This document shows positions 42,203 through 60,558 of a DNA stretch of 64,000 nt, piece by piece (within the stretch, counting starts at the first letter, position 1; each line of letters begins with the position of its first letter). The position numbers and the translations under genes are program-made. The stretch spans positions 10,916 to 74,915 of the forward strand of contig JBFMEN010000003.1 in the NCBI GenBank assembly GCA_040753435.1, read 5' to 3'. Under the pieces are notes generated by a model. It worked only from the letters and a program-made list of their open reading frames with translations, was not told the origin of the DNA and did not search any database. This stretch comes from Candidatus Omnitrophota bacterium (GTDB lineage: Bacteria > Omnitrophota > Gorgyraeia > Zapsychrales > JANLHA01).

Positions 42203-42936
42203 TATTGGCTAGAGTCCTGGTTTGCCCGATTGCTTATAACGAGAATGTTAAACTTGAAAGTGCCATCAAGCGCTTTTCAACATGTTCATTAAGCCGTTCC
42301 GTCGATTATGTAGTTATGGATGACGGCTCAAATGATGGCACGACTGAGATGATCCGTTCTTTCACAGACAAGGGAGTCCGCACGATCAAACATCCTGAAT
42401 CACGCGGGGTAGGCGCCGCTATTCGTACGGCGATTGGTTATGCCAGGGAAAATGGTTATGAGATCATTGTGATCATGGCCGGCAATGATAAGGATGATCC
42501 AGAACAGATCGACCGGTTACTGCGGCCAATCATTAACGACGGATACGATTTGGTCCAGGGTTCGCGTTATCTTGAAGGAGGAGGCATTGGAGGTGATATG
42601 CCTTTGTATCGGAAGGTGGCGACCAGGATTCATCCGATGCTGATGTCATTCTTTTTAAAAAAGAAAGTGACCGACAGCACCAACGGTTTCAGGGCGATCC
42701 GGCTCGATATATTTAATGACAGCCGGATTAATTTAGACCAGGATTGGCTCAACCGGTATGAGCTTGAACCATACATACTTTTTCAGGCGATTCGCTGCGG
42801 CTATCGTTTTTGTGAGGTCCCTGTCACGAAAATCTATCCTCTAAAAAAACTTGGCTATACAAAAATGAAACCGGTCATCGGATGGTGGAGTATTTTGCGC
42901 CCGGTTTTTTTATTAGGGTTAGGAATGCGAAAATAG
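42199..42936 (+). CDS. Glycosyltransferase family 2
   Basis: VVMDDGSNDGT motif and DxD region; 245 aa. Confidence 0.85.
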   Translation: MILARVLVCPIAYNENVKLESAIKRFSTCSLSRSVDYVVMDDGSNDGTTEMIRSFTDKGVRTIKHPESRGVGAAIRTAIGYARENGYEIIVIMAGNDKDDPEQIDRLLRPIINDGYDLVQGSRYLEGGGIGGDMPLYRKVATRIHPMLMSFFLKKKVTDSTNGFRAIRLDIFNDSRINLDQDWLNRYELEPYILFQAIRCGYRFCEVPVTKIYPLKKLGYTKMKPVIGWWSILRPVFLLGLGMRK

Positions 42937-43682
42937 GAGAAGATGTGAAAGAATGCCCCCGCTGTCAAATCACTTTTCACATGGATGATCGCGAACGATG
43001 TCTTTACTGCAACACCATTCTGCAATCGTCCGATGAAGATAAAACTGATTTGACAAAACCCGTGAATTCGGGATTTCTGGGTATAGCCGCGGCTCAATCC
43101 GTTATTCAGAAGGTTGTTGATGATCATGGCATCAAGAATCTTACCCGGCTTCAATTCATCGTTTCCAGTTATTTCAGGACCCGGACCCTTCATTTTACCT
43201 ACGCGTTTTGCAGGAATGATTTTTTGATGGGGCCAGTGTTCAGACGCCGGATGATTCAACCTTTTAATATTACCTCGGCCTTGATGTTGCCATGGGTAGT
43301 ATTTAATCTTTTTGATTCCGTCTTCTGCCGGTTCCTTTATACAAGATATTGTCATAAATGCGGATGGAAATTCTATAAGGTTCAGAATAACAATGAACAT
43401 CATCATGAAGAATGCGAGTATAATCGGGAATACAAGAACTTGATCGAGGCGATCTTGAGGGGCAGTATTATGTGGGAAGAGGCGACATTCAAGCGCCTGG
43501 GTTTGATGAAAAAAAATGCGGGGCGCAGGAGCGCTTATTGGGAGCTTTGTGAAAAAAAAGTTTTTTTCTCGGGAGCTCTGGATATCGCGTGTATCTGGTT
43601 TTCGATTTGCCTCTGGACACTGCTGATTATTGGAATCTCGTTCCCGTATATTATTAAAGCCGTTTATATGCTGGAAGTTTAG
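42882..43682 (+). CDS. Hypothetical protein with an N-terminal C4 zinc ribbon and hydrophobic segments
   Basis: CPRCQ...CLYCNT near the N-terminus. The real start is probably downstream of the ORF-track start (GTG around 42945). Confidence 0.4.
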   Translation: MVEYFAPGFFIRVRNAKIGEDVKECPRCQITFHMDDRERCLYCNTILQSSDEDKTDLTKPVNSGFLGIAAAQSVIQKVVDDHGIKNLTRLQFIVSSYFRTRTLHFTYAFCRNDFLMGPVFRRRMIQPFNITSALMLPWVVFNLFDSVFCRFLYTRYCHKCGWKFYKVQNNNEHHHEECEYNREYKNLIEAILRGSIMWEEATFKRLGLMKKNAGRRSAYWELCEKKVFFSGALDIACIWFSICLWTLLIIGISFPYIIKAVYMLEV

Positions 43683-43702
43683 CATTTATTTAAAAAAGAA
43701 AA

Positions 43703-53805: not shown

Positions 53806-56800
53806 TTGAGAAAAATTAACTGTTTAAAATTTCATGCTGCGGGAAAGGCCCTGACCTGTTTTTTGGCTTTTTCCTTTGTGTTTAATCCTGTTATTGGGTA
53901 TGCCCAGATTGGATTAAACCCGTCATCTTCCCCAGTTCTTCCTGTTCCAGGAGCCATGGTTCCTTTGAGCGGCGCTTTTGACCCGGCCATCATCAATGGG
54001 ATAAAGATATTTCCCGATAATCCTTTTCGATTAGAGTTTCTTATTGGTTCAGGACAATCGGAATTGGAAGGGGATGACTTCAGGGAAGAGTCTAAAAAGC
54101 TTGTTCGGTATTTTTTGGCTTCATTGACTGTTCCCGACAAGGAACTCTGGGTCAACTTATCGCCCTATGAAAGAGATCGTATTATACCCGAAGCCTTTGG
54201 TATTACTGAAATGGGCCGGGATTTGCTGGCCCAGGATTATTTATTGAAACAGGTAACGGCTTCGCTGATGTATCCGGACGGGTCTCCAGGCAAAGAATTC
54301 TGGCTCCGGGTTTCCGCGAAGGCTTATGAACAATATGGGGTCACCGATGTTCCCGTTGACCTGTTTAACAGAGTATGGGTCTTGCCCGACAGGGCGGTTG
54401 TTTATGAGCAGGGAGATACTGCTTTTGTGATTGAGAGCCGTTTAAAGGTGATGCTGGATTCGGATTACGAAGCCATGCAGGGTTCCCAAGAGCCCAAGAG
54501 CCCAAGTTCCAAAGAAAAAGATTTTACATGGGCACATGGGCACATGGGCACATGGGAACTTGACTCCGGAGAGCTTTCGAAACAAATCGTTCGCGAGGTC
54601 ATCCTTCCCGAAATCGAACGAGAAGTCAACGAAGGAAAAAATTTCGCCCCGTTGCGCCAGATTTACAATTCAATGATACTCGCCACATGGTTTAAACGAA
54701 GTCTGCGGGAAGGTTTGTTGAACAAAATTTATGTCGGAAAGAACAAGATTGAAGGGGTTGATATTAGTGACAAACAGGCCAAAGAGAAGATCTACCAGCG
54801 GTACCTGGAGGCATTCCAGGAAGGGGTTTATAACCTGGTTAAAGAAGAGTATGATCCTGTTCTAAAAGAGATTGTTCCAAAGAGATACACATCCGGAGGA
54901 ATGGAATTCGGGTTGCGGCTGGATCAAACGGTCAAGAATGTCACCAGTCTGTCTTCAGCGCAGTCCAAAGATTTCGCAATGCTGGTTAAAGACAAGGGGA
55001 TCAGGAAGGTTTCCGTTGATCTGGAAAGGTCCGCAAAGACAATCCCTGCTCTAAGTTATGCTATTTATCAAGATGCGGAATATATCAACGGAAGGATTGA
55101 GGGGGGAAGATTATTTCGTCCGGGAGGGGCAAAAGATATTTTTGAATTACGCGTGCACTTGGACGAAACGCCTTTGGATTTCTCTGGGGTTGTTAAAATG
55201 ATCCTTCCGAAAGACGGAACGTTAACTATGTTCGGAAAGGGATATTGGCAGGGTTGGGAGGAATACCGCGGCGAGCCGGTAATTATTGTTATAAACAACA
55301 GAAACGTGGTTGAAGTTTATAATTCACAAAATCAAAAGATTTTCCCATTCGGAAAAAATATTATTTATCCCGGAGGAACGTACCGGAATGGAAAAGTCAA
55401 TGGAACTCCGTTTAACCCGCATGGAGCAAGGACAAAAGTTACGATTAAAGACTATATCGGTGAAAACCCGGAATTCACCGGTGTTATCCACAGAGTTCAG
55501 CTCAATAATCATGGCGGGTTGCCTTCCATGGAATATCTGGGGGTCAAATGGGCTAATATGAGCGGCTATGAAAACGCCTTTGTTACGATCGTAGTCGAAA
55601 AAGGCCGGGCTACGGCGATCTATGATGCGAGCGGGAAACAGATCTTCCCTTTCCCCCATAATTATGTCCATTTTGGGGCTCAATACAAAGACGGAAAAAT
55701 TACCGGCGGCGTTTTGGCAACCCCGCACGGGATTTCCAGCCGTTACGAATTGAACAAGTTGTTATCAGCCGCGAGAAAAAAAGATCCCGGCATGTCCTGT
55801 GTCGTCGAAAAGGTGCCGCTGAATGATAAAGGAGGGCTGACGTATTTCCTGGGGGTCGGCAAGTATTGGGCAGATAAGGCGGGATACGAAAAGGCCCTTG
55901 TTACGATTGTCGTTACTAACGGAGATGAGATTACGGTTTATGATGAGAGAGGAAAGAAGATTTTCGAAAGACTGCGGAAGGAAGAAAATTTCGTTTACTT
56001 AAATGCTCGATATGAGGAGGGGAAAATCGTCGGAGGCACGCTTCTCAATGAACGGGGAACTTTTGACCGGCGGGAGTTAAATAAAATCGTGGCGCCGCAT
56101 CCCGGGTTTACCGGGGTCATTGACAAGGTCCGCTTGTCGTTTAATGGCGGGTTGGTGAAATTTCTTGGAAAAAATGTTTGGATGGGGATGACGGAATATG
56201 CCTATCAGATGGTCACAGTTGTTATGGCCGATGGGGAAGTGACGGAAGTTTATGACAGGAGCAACGAGCCAATATATCCGTTTAAAGAGAATTTTATATA
56301 CAAAGGCGCCCGTTTGGAGAAAGGGAAAATTATCGGGGGAGAACTTGTCAATCCCCAGGGGTTTCTGGACAAAACGTTTATTGGGAAGTATCTGAATGAA
56401 CCGGAAAATGAGGATTTTACGGGAGTTATTGAGACAAGGCTGCTGTTTGATGGAGGACTTCCCGTGGGTTTAGAGGAACCCGGATGGTCGTTACAGACGG
56501 AATATAAGCATAAATTTGTTTTTATAGTGAAAGAAAAAGGGAAGACAGTCGGAATTTATGATGAGGAAGGAACTAGATTATTTCCTTATGACGCAAATTT
56601 TGTTTATTGGAACGCTGATTTTATTGATCGGGAGATTAAGGGAGGAAAGCTCCTGACCCCGGCAGGGGTGAGAACCCGTAAGAATTTAAATGAACTGCTT
56701 GCTGAATATCCGGATTTTACAGGGATTATTACGAAGCTGCCGTTTCACGATTCAGGACGGCTCGGTCAAGTGAAAGATGGAATCTATCTTGACTATGTTT

Positions 56801-59800
56801 CGGCTATTCGTGGGAAGAAAGTGACGGTTAAGCTTGTCAAGGGAGCGGTTGTCGCGATTTACGATGAACGCGGATTTATGGTGTGGTCGGAAAACCGGGA
56901 GAGCGTCGGATTTGATATTTTGAATAGTCTATGGAAGTCGGGGGACCTTCAAAAGTTACTGGAACTTTTCGGTGAAGAGGGAACAAATCGTCTCTTGTTC
57001 TCTTTTTTTGATGATTTGACGCCGAAAAGTTTGATAGACTTTTTTCGGGATTACAGGAGTTTTGGGGTCCGGAAGAAGTTTCGGAAAAAGAAGTATGAAG
57101 AAACATTGAAGCCTTCGGAAATTGTTAAAAAGCTGGGCGCGATCGGCCTGCTTCAGAAACAATCCTCAAAGGCCGACTTTCAGGAAGTTTTACGGCAGCA
57201 GTTATTTTCGCTTGTCTATAGTTCTATTGTACGGGACTATAAATTCATCGATGCGATCGAAAAGGAGGTTAAGAGGAATTCGTTTGATCCGGTTATTAAA
57301 AATGCTTTTGAAGAGGTTATCCGCACTTACAGAGATCTGGGAAATTTTCATGTTGAAGGGATTCGATCCCCTACTCAATTAAGATTTTATCAAAAGCGCG
57401 GAGTCAAGTTTATTCTGGACGCTAAACGAGTTCTCCTGTCTGATCAATCGGGGTTGGGAAAAACTTTACAGGCCTTGACGGCGGCGGTTAATGCTTATGA
57501 TGGAAAAGGCGGGAAAAAGATTCTTATTATCTGTCCGGACGTATCCATCCGTAATACGTGGATTAAGGATATTCAACGTCATTTAAAAGGTGAACAGAAA
57601 ATTTATGTTGTCGGCAGCAAAGCAGACTTTAATTCGATTAAAAAACGGAACGATGCCAGGGACGCAAGGTTTATTATTGCCAATTATGAGGTTTTAAGAG
57701 GGGAAGATGCCGCCGGTCTCAGGCAGAATATAAAGGATTTGGGGATTGATTTTATTATTGCTGATGAGGGGCACAGGATTAAGAACAATTCCCAGCTGAC
57801 TGAGGCGGTCCAGGAGTTCCACGCTCCGTACCAGGTCCTGATCAGCGCTTCCGCCCAGCAGGGAAGGACGATTGCCAAAATTTTTAACCTGCTGAATTGG
57901 CTTTATCCGGAAAGGTATCCGGACAGAAAGGAATTCTTGCGGAAGTACGGTAATGCTGAGGGATACTGGCAGTTGAAGTCTGAAATGAGAGGCTTTATGC
58001 TGCGGAGACATAAATCAGACGTCCTGGCGGACATGCCGGAAATTAACGTGGAGTTTCTTCCCGTGCAGCTTAAAGGCGAACAACTGCGTTTATATCAAGA
58101 GATTGAGAAGGAGTTTGATGAGATTACTGAATCGGGTGATTATCTGCGAATGGGGGGAGTGATCCTGAATTTGATTCGAGTGGCGCTGGATACAGCCTTG
58201 ATCAGAGATATCTTTTTAAAAGATTTAGACGCTCAGGAAATTATTCCGGTTAAAGTGGGAGGGTATTACGGAAGAGTCGGAGACGTGGAATACAGGTTCT
58301 CCTTTTCATTTAAAGATCCGGTTTTTTCTTATACTGATTCATCAGGGAAGAAATATTCTATGAAGGTGAGGGATGGGGACATTGTTCAGATGGGTGGACG
58401 AACGTATGAAATAGGAATTAAGGAAAGAAAATCGGTTTCAGCGAAGTATGAGGCCCTTGACCGTATGGTCGATGACATTGTCGGTGAAAAAAAAGAAAGC
58501 ATGGTGGTTTTTACCGGCGCGCGAAAGGCTGTTTCTTATTTAAAGCAACGATATGAAAAAGAAGGATACGAAGTGGTCGGCATTGATGGAGATGTCAGCG
58601 CGAAAGCAAGGGAAGATATTCTGAAAAAGTTTAATACGGCCGGGAGACCGATTATCCTTGTTTGTACCTATCAAACATTGGGTGAATCCATTGATATTAC
58701 CGGAGCGCATTACGGGGTCTTGCTGGACAGCCCATGGCTTGACCGCGAACAGATCATGGACCGGCTGCATCGATTGGGGCAGCTGCATGATGTCTTGTTT
58801 ACGATTATTGTTGCAAAAGACACCGTCGATGAACATGTAGAGCAGGTCAATATGGAAAGCGATATGATCAAGAGCATTGTTCTTGATAACCTTAATGTTT
58901 ATAACAGGCAAAAGGAATTGAGCAAAAGATTAATTTTGGAGAAAGTCAGAAATAAAGAACTTTATTCCCAACTTAGAAGATTTCAAGAGAAGGTCCGGTT
59001 AATTGGAAGCGACGTGGAGAAAAAGGCCCGATCGGCAAGACTTTTGACTGAATATAAAAAAGGCAATCTGAGCGTTCTTTACGGAAACCATCGTTTCGCT
59101 GCAGAACTTGAAAATATAAACGGGGAGACCGTTTATCTTGACGGCCTTTTGGAGCTTGTGAATATGGTGAAGGATCTAAGTGCCGATTCAAAGAATGCGT
59201 TAAAAGAATTTTTCATTCAACGTTTTAAAGACGAGAGGCAGAAAGATGTCAGGGTTAAAGATATGATCCTGTGGGATATTTGCAATCAAATTATCCCCGG
59301 TTTTATTAATATCGATTATGACGGAAAATTGGAGTTTATGATTGAATGGGGAACTTATATATTAAGAAGGCTGATCGTTAACCCTGACCTCAGTAAGGAA
59401 GAGTTGATGACAGGATTGGGGGATGAAGCCGGAGACCTTTTTAATGACACCATGCATCTTCTCGACACATCGAATATCCTGAAGTTATTTTCTCTGATGA
59501 CGGTCATCCCTCAATCCTATTATTATGAGGGAGAGCTTCTCAGGTATGAACCGGCGATCTCTGTTTATTACGCGAATGGAAGAATCAGGTACTGGGATCA
59601 ACAGATCGTCGATAACATTGCGCCGGGATGGCAGATCAGCGACGGTGAGATTTATTCGGGAATAGAGGGGATTGAGCGGGAAGGCCGGCGGGTCCGGGCT
59701 CTGGAAGAATCAGAGGAGAAGCGTCTGGCCAATCAGATACGGCTGGGGAACAAGGCGGCGGAAAATCTTCTGGTGCGGGCGTATTTCCGAAATTTGAAAC

Positions 59801-60558
59801 CGATCGCGAAACGGGTCATCGAGAGCGGAAAGCTGGAGAAGGCATTCGGTTTAAAAGTCGCCGGTGTTGTGGATTTGGAAAGCCTGGTTTCCGCCGGGGA
59901 AGAGGCATTGGTAGATTTGATTAATGTCTACTCAGAGCACGAGATCTATTACAATACGCCGCTTAAAGATTTTCTCCGGAAACGGTTGAATCCGAGAATG
60001 TATTCGCTCGGGTTTCAGATAGCGGAAGAGATGTCCAGGTCGGTCGACCCTGAAGAATATTATCGAAGCGAATTGCTGAGCGAAGATCCTGTCGACCCAG
60101 GTAATTTGGAAGTGGGTGAACAAAAGAAAATTTTTGCCGGTCTGCTTGAACGGGAAGGTTTTAGCGATATAGAAGCTGAGATGATCATGCTTTTTGTTTT
60201 TGAAGGTTATTCGGAGAAGGAGTTGCTGGAAGAATACTTTCAAAACGGTTTAAGGGATCCGAGCGAACAGGACATACGGTATGTGGAGAATCTTATTGCC
60301 AGCTTTCAACATAAAATGAATGTTTTGGGCAAGGAAAACCTCCTTAATATTCTTGATGAAGGGCTTCCTGTTGATGAGGATGTGGGAGGTATCAATCTTG
60401 ATCCGGCGATCTTGAATATCGAGACCCGTGGCAGCGGTTTGGAGAAAGGCTTTTCCGATATTGATATGACACTGTTTGACGACTCTTCTTTCGCGGGATT
60501 TATTCCTGTGATTATCGACATTGCTCCTGCGAATTTATCAGGGTTTATAGCAAATTAG
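53806..60558 (+). CDS. Giant (2250 aa) multi-domain protein. It has a signal peptide, a conserved about 370-aa N-terminal domain shared with the downstream paralog, 6-7 novel ~90-aa tandem repeats, an SNF2-family helicase (DEXH ATPase plus helicase-C) and a C-terminal sigma-70/ECF-like region 2 plus region 4 module
   Basis: TTG start. Signal-like ..CFLAFSFVFNPVIGYA. N-terminal domain LVRYFLASLTVPDKELWVNLSPYERDRIIP...TWELDSGELSKQIVREVILPEIEREVNEGKNFAPLRQIYNSMILATWFK. Repeats carry V.V.D..G..I(F/Y)PF..N.VY..A.Y..GKI.GG.L..P.G...R.ELNK.....P.FTGVI.K. SNF2 motifs SDQSGLGKTLQAL (motif I), IIADEGHRIKN (motif II), LLDSPW..EQIMDRLHRLGQ (motif VI). C-terminal LGNKAAENLLVRAYFRNLKPIAKRV (sigma region 2.1-2.2-like) and AEMIMLFVFEGYSEKELLEEYF (region 4-like). 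Confidence 0.85.
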   Translation: MRKINCLKFHAAGKALTCFLAFSFVFNPVIGYAQIGLNPSSSPVLPVPGAMVPLSGAFDPAIINGIKIFPDNPFRLEFLIGSGQSELEGDDFREESKKLVRYFLASLTVPDKELWVNLSPYERDRIIPEAFGITEMGRDLLAQDYLLKQVTASLMYPDGSPGKEFWLRVSAKAYEQYGVTDVPVDLFNRVWVLPDRAVVYEQGDTAFVIESRLKVMLDSDYEAMQGSQEPKSPSSKEKDFTWAHGHMGTWELDSGELSKQIVREVILPEIEREVNEGKNFAPLRQIYNSMILATWFKRSLREGLLNKIYVGKNKIEGVDISDKQAKEKIYQRYLEAFQEGVYNLVKEEYDPVLKEIVPKRYTSGGMEFGLRLDQTVKNVTSLSSAQSKDFAMLVKDKGIRKVSVDLERSAKTIPALSYAIYQDAEYINGRIEGGRLFRPGGAKDIFELRVHLDETPLDFSGVVKMILPKDGTLTMFGKGYWQGWEEYRGEPVIIVINNRNVVEVYNSQNQKIFPFGKNIIYPGGTYRNGKVNGTPFNPHGARTKVTIKDYIGENPEFTGVIHRVQLNNHGGLPSMEYLGVKWANMSGYENAFVTIVVEKGRATAIYDASGKQIFPFPHNYVHFGAQYKDGKITGGVLATPHGISSRYELNKLLSAARKKDPGMSCVVEKVPLNDKGGLTYFLGVGKYWADKAGYEKALVTIVVTNGDEITVYDERGKKIFERLRKEENFVYLNARYEEGKIVGGTLLNERGTFDRRELNKIVAPHPGFTGVIDKVRLSFNGGLVKFLGKNVWMGMTEYAYQMVTVVMADGEVTEVYDRSNEPIYPFKENFIYKGARLEKGKIIGGELVNPQGFLDKTFIGKYLNEPENEDFTGVIETRLLFDGGLPVGLEEPGWSLQTEYKHKFVFIVKEKGKTVGIYDEEGTRLFPYDANFVYWNADFIDREIKGGKLLTPAGVRTRKNLNELLAEYPDFTGIITKLPFHDSGRLGQVKDGIYLDYVSAIRGKKVTVKLVKGAVVAIYDERGFMVWSENRESVGFDILNSLWKSGDLQKLLELFGEEGTNRLLFSFFDDLTPKSLIDFFRDYRSFGVRKKFRKKKYEETLKPSEIVKKLGAIGLLQKQSSKADFQEVLRQQLFSLVYSSIVRDYKFIDAIEKEVKRNSFDPVIKNAFEEVIRTYRDLGNFHVEGIRSPTQLRFYQKRGVKFILDAKRVLLSDQSGLGKTLQALTAAVNAYDGKGGKKILIICPDVSIRNTWIKDIQRHLKGEQKIYVVGSKADFNSIKKRNDARDARFIIANYEVLRGEDAAGLRQNIKDLGIDFIIADEGHRIKNNSQLTEAVQEFHAPYQVLISASAQQGRTIAKIFNLLNWLYPERYPDRKEFLRKYGNAEGYWQLKSEMRGFMLRRHKSDVLADMPEINVEFLPVQLKGEQLRLYQEIEKEFDEITESGDYLRMGGVILNLIRVALDTALIRDIFLKDLDAQEIIPVKVGGYYGRVGDVEYRFSFSFKDPVFSYTDSSGKKYSMKVRDGDIVQMGGRTYEIGIKERKSVSAKYEALDRMVDDIVGEKKESMVVFTGARKAVSYLKQRYEKEGYEVVGIDGDVSAKAREDILKKFNTAGRPIILVCTYQTLGESIDITGAHYGVLLDSPWLDREQIMDRLHRLGQLHDVLFTIIVAKDTVDEHVEQVNMESDMIKSIVLDNLNVYNRQKELSKRLILEKVRNKELYSQLRRFQEKVRLIGSDVEKKARSARLLTEYKKGNLSVLYGNHRFAAELENINGETVYLDGLLELVNMVKDLSADSKNALKEFFIQRFKDERQKDVRVKDMILWDICNQIIPGFINIDYDGKLEFMIEWGTYILRRLIVNPDLSKEELMTGLGDEAGDLFNDTMHLLDTSNILKLFSLMTVIPQSYYYEGELLRYEPAISVYYANGRIRYWDQQIVDNIAPGWQISDGEIYSGIEGIEREGRRVRALEESEEKRLANQIRLGNKAAENLLVRAYFRNLKPIAKRVIESGKLEKAFGLKVAGVVDLESLVSAGEEALVDLINVYSEHEIYYNTPLKDFLRKRLNPRMYSLGFQIAEEMSRSVDPEEYYRSELLSEDPVDPGNLEVGEQKKIFAGLLEREGFSDIEAEMIMLFVFEGYSEKELLEEYFQNGLRDPSEQDIRYVENLIASFQHKMNVLGKENLLNILDEGLPVDEDVGGINLDPAILNIETRGSGLEKGFSDIDMTLFDDSSFAGFIPVIIDIAPANLSGFIAN
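55270..56900 (+). repeat. Six to seven diverged tandem repeats of about 270 bp (~90 aa each) inside the giant gene
   Basis: The recurrent protein pattern (..T.VYD..G..IFPF..NFVY..A.Y..GKI.GG.L..P.G...R.ELNK.....P.FTGVI.KV.L...GGL..) was read from the translation. DNA identity between units is low, so the repeats are ancient. Confidence 0.6.

Follow-up and report, generated by a model that had tools for sequence, protein, structure and literature searches.

Sigma factors are known to act as free subunits that can be exchanged, and the eukaryotic SNF2-family ATPase Mot1 recognizes TBP through HEAT repeats. RapA, a Swi2/Snf2 ATPase associated with RNA polymerase (RNAP), is reported to dock by its own N-terminal domains and not by a sigma module (PMC8501970), and helix-turn-helix (HTH) domains of the sigma type are already known as accessory modules, for example in BrxL (PMC12839542). 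Here we describe a protein in which an SNF2 motor and a sigma-like module occur in one polypeptide. It is encoded in a 64,000-nucleotide stretch of contig JBFMEN010000003.1 from a Candidatus Omnitrophota bacterium (hereafter the window), where a single very long open reading frame (ORF) at 53806-60558 on the + strand specifies a product of 2,250 amino acids (aa) when the TTG start is counted. By both fold and sequence, the segment at aa 1958-2182 of this product belongs to the sigma-70 family, of which it is a genuine but strongly diverged member. In a limited literature search we came across no report of an SNF2 ATPase fused to a complete sigma module (regions 1.2-2-3.2-4). The features on which the analysis centers are as follows.

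53806..60558, + strand: giant ORF, 2,250 codons, TTG start
57373..58905, + strand: SNF2-family ATPase (aa ~1190-1700), from Pfam SNF2-rel_dom and Helicase_C, with motifs I, II and VI intact
59677..60030, + strand: sigma-2-like domain (aa 1958-2075), from hhalign and from PDB profile matches that are all sigma over regions 1.2-2.4
60031..60117, + strand: acidic linker (aa 2076-2104), predicted disordered, aligning with sigma region 3.2 and its 'sLD.Pvg.d' motif
60118..60351, + strand: sigma-4-like domain (aa 2105-2182), region 4.1 and the HTH of region 4.2, from hhalign, Pfam, PDB and fold

A sigma-70-like module joined to an SNF2 motor

The original prediction placed segments resembling sigma regions 2 and 4 at the C-terminus of the giant protein, between 59700 and 60300. 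Both peptides on which it relied lie within that interval and in frame of the giant ORF, LGNKAAENLLVRAYFRNLKPIAKRV corresponding to aa 1980-2004 (nt 59743-59817) and EQKKIFAGLLEREGFSDIEAEMIMLFVFEGYSEKELLEEYF to aa 2105-2145 (nt 60118-60240). The full module is somewhat wider, extending over aa 1958-2182 (nt 59677-60351). Profile-sequence, profile-profile and fold evidence all back its sigma-like character, and we regard the homology and fold of this segment as established with very little doubt. Single-sequence hidden Markov models (HMMs) stay sub-threshold; the homology becomes visible only when a profile of the family or a model of the structure is used.

Run as a single sequence against the Sigma70_r2, r4 and ECF models, which had been named as a check on the prediction, the protein fails at curated thresholds. 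Pfam gave no sigma family above threshold for the whole protein, its C-terminal 450 aa or three sub-segments (Sigma70_ECF E 0.15), and in the whole protein the SNF2 ATPase domains were the only matches above threshold. In NCBIfam, RpoD was matched below threshold (E 0.036) over RpoD positions 110-156, which represent region 1.2/2.1. No homologues were returned when the C-terminal 320 aa were used by themselves in a word-indexed search. The full-length query retrieved seven orthologues (P0002-P0008, 27-47% identity), and an exhaustive phmmer search with aa 1781-2250 against 1.84 billion representatives retrieved 37 proteins, no canonical sigma among them. Profiles were made from two alignments, A1 with 8 sequences and A2 with 25 sequences over aa 1958-2182.

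With the A1 profile, the best 24 matches among PDB sequences were all sigma-70-family chains (SigA, RpoS, SigK), headed by S. aureus SigA (8x6f_E, E 1.5e-6). Profile positions 17-118 matched regions 1.2-2.4 of Taq SigA, the regions covered by the PDB profile matches in both Taq and Thermus thermophilus SigA. With A2, sigma-70-family chains made up 25 of the 26 best matches; 8x6f_E was again at the top (E 3.7e-6), a colinear match extended into regions 3/4 of sigma chain 8x6g_H (profile 109-209 against chain 152-250, E 5e-3), and region 4 was matched in the sigma-4 part of SigF (8jzt_A, E 0.25). When the A2 profile was run against a collection of 5.8 billion proteins, only seven proteins came back, all of them canonical sigmas with Pfam r1_2, r2 and r4. 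The first of these was P0152, a compact sigma of 246 aa (E 3.7e-8 at that database size). Pfam searches of the individual A2 members found Sigma70_r1_2 in 10 of the 25 (best E 8.8e-5), Sigma70_ECF in three (best E 0.02), Sigma70_r4 in one (E 1.1e-3) and r4_2 in one (E 0.017).

Profile-profile comparison by hhalign aligned A2 with P0152 over 177 columns, from region 1.2 into region 4 (probability 97.1%, E 5e-11). Compared with seven true sigmas aligned together (P0152, P0154, P0155 and, from E. coli, RpoS, RpoD, FliA and RpoE), A2 matched over 200 columns covering its positions 3-223 (probability 98.1%, E 7.3e-14, score 95.9). Thirty column-shuffled control alignments scored no higher than 17.2 (minimum E 0.13), and a reversed alignment scored 13.1. 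Region 2 is recognizable by sequence at the profile level, with hhalign probabilities of 94.8-98.1%. Region 4 is also recognizable by sequence, on weaker evidence than region 2: the sigma-4 part alone gave a probability of 72% (P 3.3e-5) against region 4 of the seven sigmas, and the full-module alignment passes through region 4.

An AlphaFold (AF2) model of the module, with a pLDDT of 86.9, has the two-domain sigma fold. The pLDDT was 84-98 over the sigma-2-like blocks and below 50 for model residues 131-141, which belong to the linker. In a Foldseek comparison with the PDB, the best 50 matches were all sigma factors and spanned both domains, with 200-300 aligned columns and probability up to 1.00. 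The fold matches of an earlier, weaker structure model agree with those of the later one. The comparison of folds, also named at the outset as a check, bears out the predicted sigma segments.

In the merged alignment, regions 1.2+2.1, 2.2, 2.3/2.4, a 3.2-like linker and 4.1-4.2 of the module follow one another colinearly with those of sigma factors. The sigma-2-like domain begins with regions 1.2 and 2.1 (LEESEEKRLANQIRLGNKAAENLLVRAYFRNLKPIAKRV); an insertion of 13-16 aa that is specific to the family comes next, before region 2.2 and region 2.3/2.4. The best-kept block of the module is region 1.2 plus 2.1, not the HTH; here the family reads 'L(T)xxEExRLAxQxxxGNKAAExVLVxAxLR..IAkR' and sigmas read 'LLTxEEEvxLAkrxxxGDxxAxxxLixANLRLVvsIAkrY'. 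In region 2.2, the family sequence 'dLYxEGQexL' corresponds to 'DLIQEGNiGL' of sigmas, the member P0123 having 'LYGEGNLAL', and the linker sequence 'LtLDxxvyxD...D' corresponds to 'iSmDtPiGdDedS.l.D' of sigma region 3.2. A sigma-3.0/3.1 domain is absent, as it is in P0152. The turn of the region 4.2 HTH carries an insertion of 8-13 aa in the clade of the window protein; spacing is canonical in the deep-branching members P0007, P0008, P0135, P0145, P0133 and P0136.

The module had been called 'Sigma-70/ECF-like', a description of which the sigma-70 half stands and the ECF half does not. An ECF (group 4) sigma was ruled out because region 1.2 and a region-3.2-like linker are present and the best full-length match, P0152, is a compact 1.2-2-3.2-4 sigma. 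Among the A2 members, region 1.2 was recognized in 10/25 and Sigma70_ECF in only 3/25.

The SNF2 motor that the original prediction had placed in the same protein was confirmed. Pfam SNF2-rel_dom was found at aa 1195-1442 (E 3.4e-35, 122 bits against a cut-off of 24.9) and Helicase_C at aa 1547-1658 (E 1e-13, 51.9 bits against a cut-off of 23.5). Motifs I (GLGKT), II (DEGH) and VI (QIMDRLHRLGQ) are intact in the translation, and the domains together with these motifs identify the protein as an SNF2 (Swi2/Snf2) ATPase. Among the best 60 PDB relatives listed, the nearest solved ones are generic remodellers of the ISWI/CHD/Snf2 type (ISWI ~1e-28), followed by a Sulfolobus Rad54-like enzyme (2e-20), a Mot1-like 'helicase-like protein' (1e-18) and ERCC6 (1.5e-15). 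RapA is not among these 60, and the protein scored 37.4 bits with the NCBIfam RapA model, for which the cut-off is 576; on these grounds a RapA orthologue was ruled out. The two RecA-like lobes of the ATPase are separated by an insertion of about 100 aa (aa ~1445-1545, 58138-58440), which carries VKVGGYYGRVGDVEYRFSFSFKDPVFSYTDSSGKKYSMKVRDGDIVQMGGRTYEIGIK and looks beta-rich in sequence.

Between the motor and the sigma-like module lies one further domain.

59023..59670, + strand: family-specific 'middle' domain (aa ~1740-1955), between SNF2 ATPase and sigma-like module

The middle domain had no relative among PDB sequences when searched with a 13-sequence profile, A3 (best E 0.043). Its invariant residues are W123, D137, Y138, D231 and P240 (A3 numbering, in which residue 1 is aa 1701 of the window sequence), and it contains the motifs 'PGF..IDYDG.LE' and 'NIFKLFSL.GVIPQ.YYY.G.LL.Y'.

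We compared six segments of the protein by phmmer with all fetched sequences and found the order SNF2-middle-sigma to be invariant in every sufficiently long member. Family members without SNF2 are short and look truncated or like contig fragments. The module is always found C-terminally in multi-domain proteins, after the SNF2 and middle parts, and not as a dissociable free subunit. Three SNF2-bearing paralogues (P0020, P0023 and P0033) of the larger superfamily described below are without the middle and sigma parts. The SNF2-middle-sigma cassette occurs in ~35 cluster representatives, almost all from Omnitrophota. A close-alignment scan of GTDB species representatives gave four loci, three of them labelled Omnitrophota. 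The fourth, L009 (DYOU01000027.1), is P0004; it has the full SNF2-middle-sigma-C-tail architecture and is labelled Candidatus Elulimicrobium sp., which NCBI taxonomy places in the Patescibacteria group and not in Omnitrophota. This label could reflect mislabelling or mis-binning, a difference in taxonomy, or true spread outside the phylum.

Core binding, promoter reading and a proposed role

In sigma-70, Q437, T440 and R441 read the -10 element and R584, E585, R586, R588 and Q589 the -35 element, and the polar residues Q406, E407 and N409 in region 2.2 of the E. coli protein are implicated in binding beta-prime. We examined the corresponding columns of the module family. Scaffold hydrophobics are kept in the columns aligned to L111, L384, V387, A391, L412, V416, V558/L559, V576 and I590. 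The G408 column holds G in 19/25 and A in 6/25, the D403 column E or D in 17/25, and the E555 column E in 22/25; in the linker, the column aligned to E508 is D in 21/25. The positions that read promoters present a different picture. Neither the -10-reading nor the -35-reading columns are conserved, even inside the family, and the W433/W434 dyad is replaced by Y/L. The sigma-70 determinants of promoter recognition and melting (the 2.3 aromatic cluster, region 2.4 and the 4.2 recognition helix) are not retained, and in the clade of the window protein the HTH turn is also broken by its insertion of 8-13 aa. With the positions for -10 and -35 recognition unconserved, the promoter-directed activity suggested for the module at first is unlikely; the RNAP-directed activity that had been suggested beside it is the more probable one.

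We propose that the module acts as an RNAP-core docking adaptor for the SNF2 motor and not as a promoter-specificity factor, and we consider this slightly more probable than its contrary. The proposal is based on two observations. First, the promoter-reading residues have decayed, but the sigma scaffold has been kept together with the hallmark of regions 1.2/2.1, some of region 2.2, the linker resembling 3.2 and region 4.1. Second, fusion of the module to a DNA translocase, itself intact, is obligate. On this proposal, the module would dock on core RNAP at the two classical sites of sigma attachment, its sigma-2-like domain on the beta-prime clamp helices and its sigma-4-like domain on the beta flap, and the acidic linker would lie between the two. 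The docked module would hold the SNF2 motor on the core of a bacterial RNAP, where ATP-driven DNA translocation could displace, stall or remodel polymerase-DNA complexes. Promoter choice would have been lost and core docking retained. We infer the binding to RNAP, the effect of the motor and the polymerase that is its target.

A number of points weigh against this proposal. Contact with RNAP is a prediction from sequence and fold. The columns of Q406, E407 and N409 are partly kept in the family and are S, A and E in the window protein, and the 13-16 aa insertion separates regions 2.1 and 2.2. Pfam Sigma70_r2 matches 0/25 members of A2. The Foldseek matches have modest E-values (0.01 or weaker), since the relative orientation of the two domains is not that of the solved holoenzymes. 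No conserved neighbouring gene gives a functional context in the neighbourhoods of the window gene and of its orthologues P0003 and P0008, where the neighbours are housekeeping genes. Furthermore, if the giant protein is exported, it is unable to meet the polymerase of the cell that produces it.

The carrier superfamily and alternative readings

The question of export arises from the N-terminal part of the protein, which, together with its extreme C-terminus, belongs to a superfamily of otherwise unrelated proteins.

53806..53907, + strand: Sec-type signal peptide: basic n-region, then a hydrophobic core (aa 15-33), and a site resembling that of signal peptidase I, GYA|Q
53935..54975, + strand: superfamily N-domain (aa ~44-390), common to >2,500 proteins at 50-60% identity
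55003..56895, + strand: tandem-repeat region of ~100-aa units (aa ~400-1030), from self-similar BLAST/phmmer segments in the query and orthologues and from the translation
60373..60555, + strand: superfamily C-tail (aa ~2190-2250), motif GGI[DN]LxP...GFxPVIxxIxP

The NCBI record of an identical protein (P0001, 2,200 aa, from a contig of 139,678 bp) carries the label 'DEAD/DEAH box helicase [Candidatus Omnitrophota bacterium]', which overlooks the sigma module. Its annotated start is M51 (ATG 53956). This start is probably too far downstream because it falls inside a conserved motif, 'LPVPGAMVPLS'. The alignments of the orthologues P0002-P0008 with the giant protein begin at about aa 6-16 and run to the final residues, and among the candidate starts only TTG 53806 takes in the signal peptide, which the M51 start misses. 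The true start is probably TTG 53806.

The hydrophobic core at aa 15-33 is the sole hydrophobic 19-mer of the window protein. N-termini across the superfamily are classical Sec-type signal peptides with an 'xYA|Q' site, and among paralogues with the downstream 'LP.PG.MV' motif a hydrophobic segment is present in 100/104 and an AxA-like site in 93/104. Cleavage and export of the giant protein are predicted from these sequence features. In a search with the full-length protein, >2,500 proteins matched only the first ~350 residues, and their downstream cargo is otherwise unrelated. The cargo includes histidine-kinase-type ATPases, Ser/Thr kinase with PP2C, UbiB with M48 peptidase, PGK, PGI and PGM, as well as methyltransferases, ankyrin, WD40, GGDEF and DnaJ. 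Among the 120 matches listed, the few N-domain proteins that have a source name are called Omnitrophota, and the paralogues (P0009-P0120) occur several to a contig. Searches of Pfam, NCBIfam and PDB sequences gave no relative for the N-domain. The ~60-aa C-tail motif, 'GGI[DN]LxP...GFxPVIxxIxP(v)xNLP.LLG', ends 128/151 fetched superfamily proteins whatever their cargo and has no NCBIfam match; its role may lie in sorting or assembly. The papers on giant genes of Omnitrophota that we checked make no mention of sigma, SNF2 or the N-domain superfamily.

The repeat region comprises about six units in which '...GG.L..P.G...F.G.I......GGL......W......Y....VTIVV..G....IYD..G..IFP' recurs. Copy number differs between orthologues, and NCBIfam gave a weak hint of LIC_11904 (E 8.6e-4).

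Since a signal peptide is present across the superfamily, a polymerase outside the cytoplasm of the producer is a serious possibility as the target of the motor, and the idea in the original prediction of an action on host or prey after delivery gains some indirect backing. So is delivery into another cell, because a signal peptide combined with cytoplasmic-type, nucleotide-dependent cargo is hard to square with a periplasmic function. Omnitrophota are ultra-small, probably host-dependent bacteria. A tentative extension of the docking proposal, which we rate as less likely than not, is that the giant protein is an exported effector of predatory or parasitic Omnitrophota: the N-domain and C-tail would serve delivery, the module would dock on the RNAP of the prey or host, and the SNF2 motor would strip, stall or misdirect that polymerase. 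Such a scenario would rely on the sigma-binding surface being nearly universal among bacteria. The gene neighbourhoods examined contain no secretion apparatus or immunity gene and so give delivery no backing; near the window gene, P0003 or P0008 there is no anti-sigma, secretion or immunity partner gene. If the scenario is true, a large effector arsenal, so far undescribed, would be made up of the >2,500 paralogues, whose cargo is kinase, glycolytic, methyltransferase or of other kinds. The combination of an export signal with a very large unannotated superfamily carrying cytoplasmic-type enzymes therefore bears on how Omnitrophota interact with other cells.

A different possibility is that the module is a sigma-derived relic that has lost contact with RNAP, its folds having been reused for nucleic-acid binding or for intramolecular regulation, where it would place the SNF2 motor on DNA or control its access there. 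We rate this at about one chance in a handful. HTH domains of the sigma type act as accessory DNA binders in other large ATPases, and those annotated as such in BREX BrxL (PMC12839542) offer a parallel. Region 2.2 of the window protein preserves its polar core-binding positions poorly, regions 2.1 and 2.2 are separated by an extra insertion, and the module always adjoins the middle domain, against which it could pack. Conservation, however, is strongest in region 1.2 plus 2.1, the hallmark of sigmas, and not in the HTH, and the acidic 3.2-like linker is conserved (D 21/25) and has no obvious role off the polymerase. A sigma-4 recognition helix that is not basic, in a domain with a net charge of -8 in the window protein, also fits DNA binding poorly. 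A comparison of the net charge of sigma-4 domains with that of E. coli sigmas did not discriminate.

That the module is a working sigma or pro-sigma, directing promoter-specific initiation of a regulon either in cis or after proteolytic release, appears unlikely. In such a case the SNF2 part would help DNA opening or serve as a regulatory tether. All regions of a minimal sigma (1.2, 2.1-2.4, the 3.2 linker and 4.1-4.2) are present and colinear, and P0007, P0008, P0135 and P0145 combine canonical HTH spacing with sigma-like recognition helices such as 'ISIRQIRSIVDDAKIILQ'. An aromatic residue persists throughout the column aligned to W433 (Y 22/25, F 3/25), and the column aligned to Y425 is Y in 20/25. 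Against these features stand the lack of conservation of the -10 and -35 reading residues even inside the family, the insertion of 8-13 aa in the HTH turn of the clade to which the window protein belongs, and the export signal. The module is free of the SNF2-middle cassette only in short, probably truncated proteins, and no anti-sigma-like neighbour is conserved around the window gene, P0003 and P0008. Finally, a chance resemblance of a helical, charged segment to sigma motifs, with which the sub-threshold single-sequence Pfam and NCBIfam results and the empty word-indexed search with the C-terminal 320 aa would agree, is scarcely credible: profile, profile-profile, whole-database and fold searches converge on sigma, and the shuffled controls are clean.

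Elsewhere in the window, two long ORFs overlap almost perfectly on opposite strands, one at 42855-43685 (-) encoding 276 aa and the other at 42882-43682 (+) encoding 266 aa. The product of the + strand ORF had no Pfam match.

Comparison with known systems

The closest relatives of the module itself are compact sigma-70 factors without sigma-3, such as P0152 (246 aa; regions 1.2, 2, 3.2 and 4). The order of regions and the two-domain helical fold are the same, and the hallmark block 'LT.EEE..LA....GN.AA...LV.ANLR' is conserved in both. Unlike these factors, the module is not a free subunit but forms the C-terminal portion of a protein of 2,250 aa. It contains the insertion between regions 2.1 and 2.2, with a further one in the HTH turn in the clade of the window protein, and it has lost the W-W dyad along with the reading residues for the -10 and -35 elements; no member of its family is recognized by Pfam Sigma70_r2 (0/25). 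If the docking proposal is true, the module would be a natural case of a sigma scaffold retained for core binding while promoter reading decays.

Polymorphic toxins and effectors, built of an N-terminal trafficking region, repeats and a variable C-terminal cargo, resemble the superfamily in architecture. The superfamily has a signal peptide, a highly conserved N-domain, repeats and variable cargo, with several paralogues per contig. The cargo differs, being kinases, glycolytic enzymes, methyltransferases or the SNF2-sigma cassette and not known toxins. The superfamily also differs in having a conserved C-tail after the cargo and in lacking a linked secretion system or immunity gene in the neighbourhoods examined, and its delivery is putative.

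With respect to the motor, RapA (HepA) is a functional analogue only: under the docking proposal, an SNF2 ATPase would likewise be brought to RNAP to remodel or recycle polymerase-DNA complexes. The eukaryotic Mot1 and CSB/Rad26 proteins are comparable in design: in each of them an SNF2 motor related in sequence is covalently joined to a module that recognizes a component of the transcription apparatus. The recognition module of the protein described here is instead a sigma module derived from an initiation factor, and the protein is found in another domain of life. If the module docks on RNAP, it would couple a DNA translocase driven by ATP to the transcription machinery of bacteria in a new way, different from those of RapA and Mfd. 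By analogy, the SNF2-sigma protein may follow the logic of RapA, Mfd, CSB or Mot1 with a different docking device, one derived from sigma.

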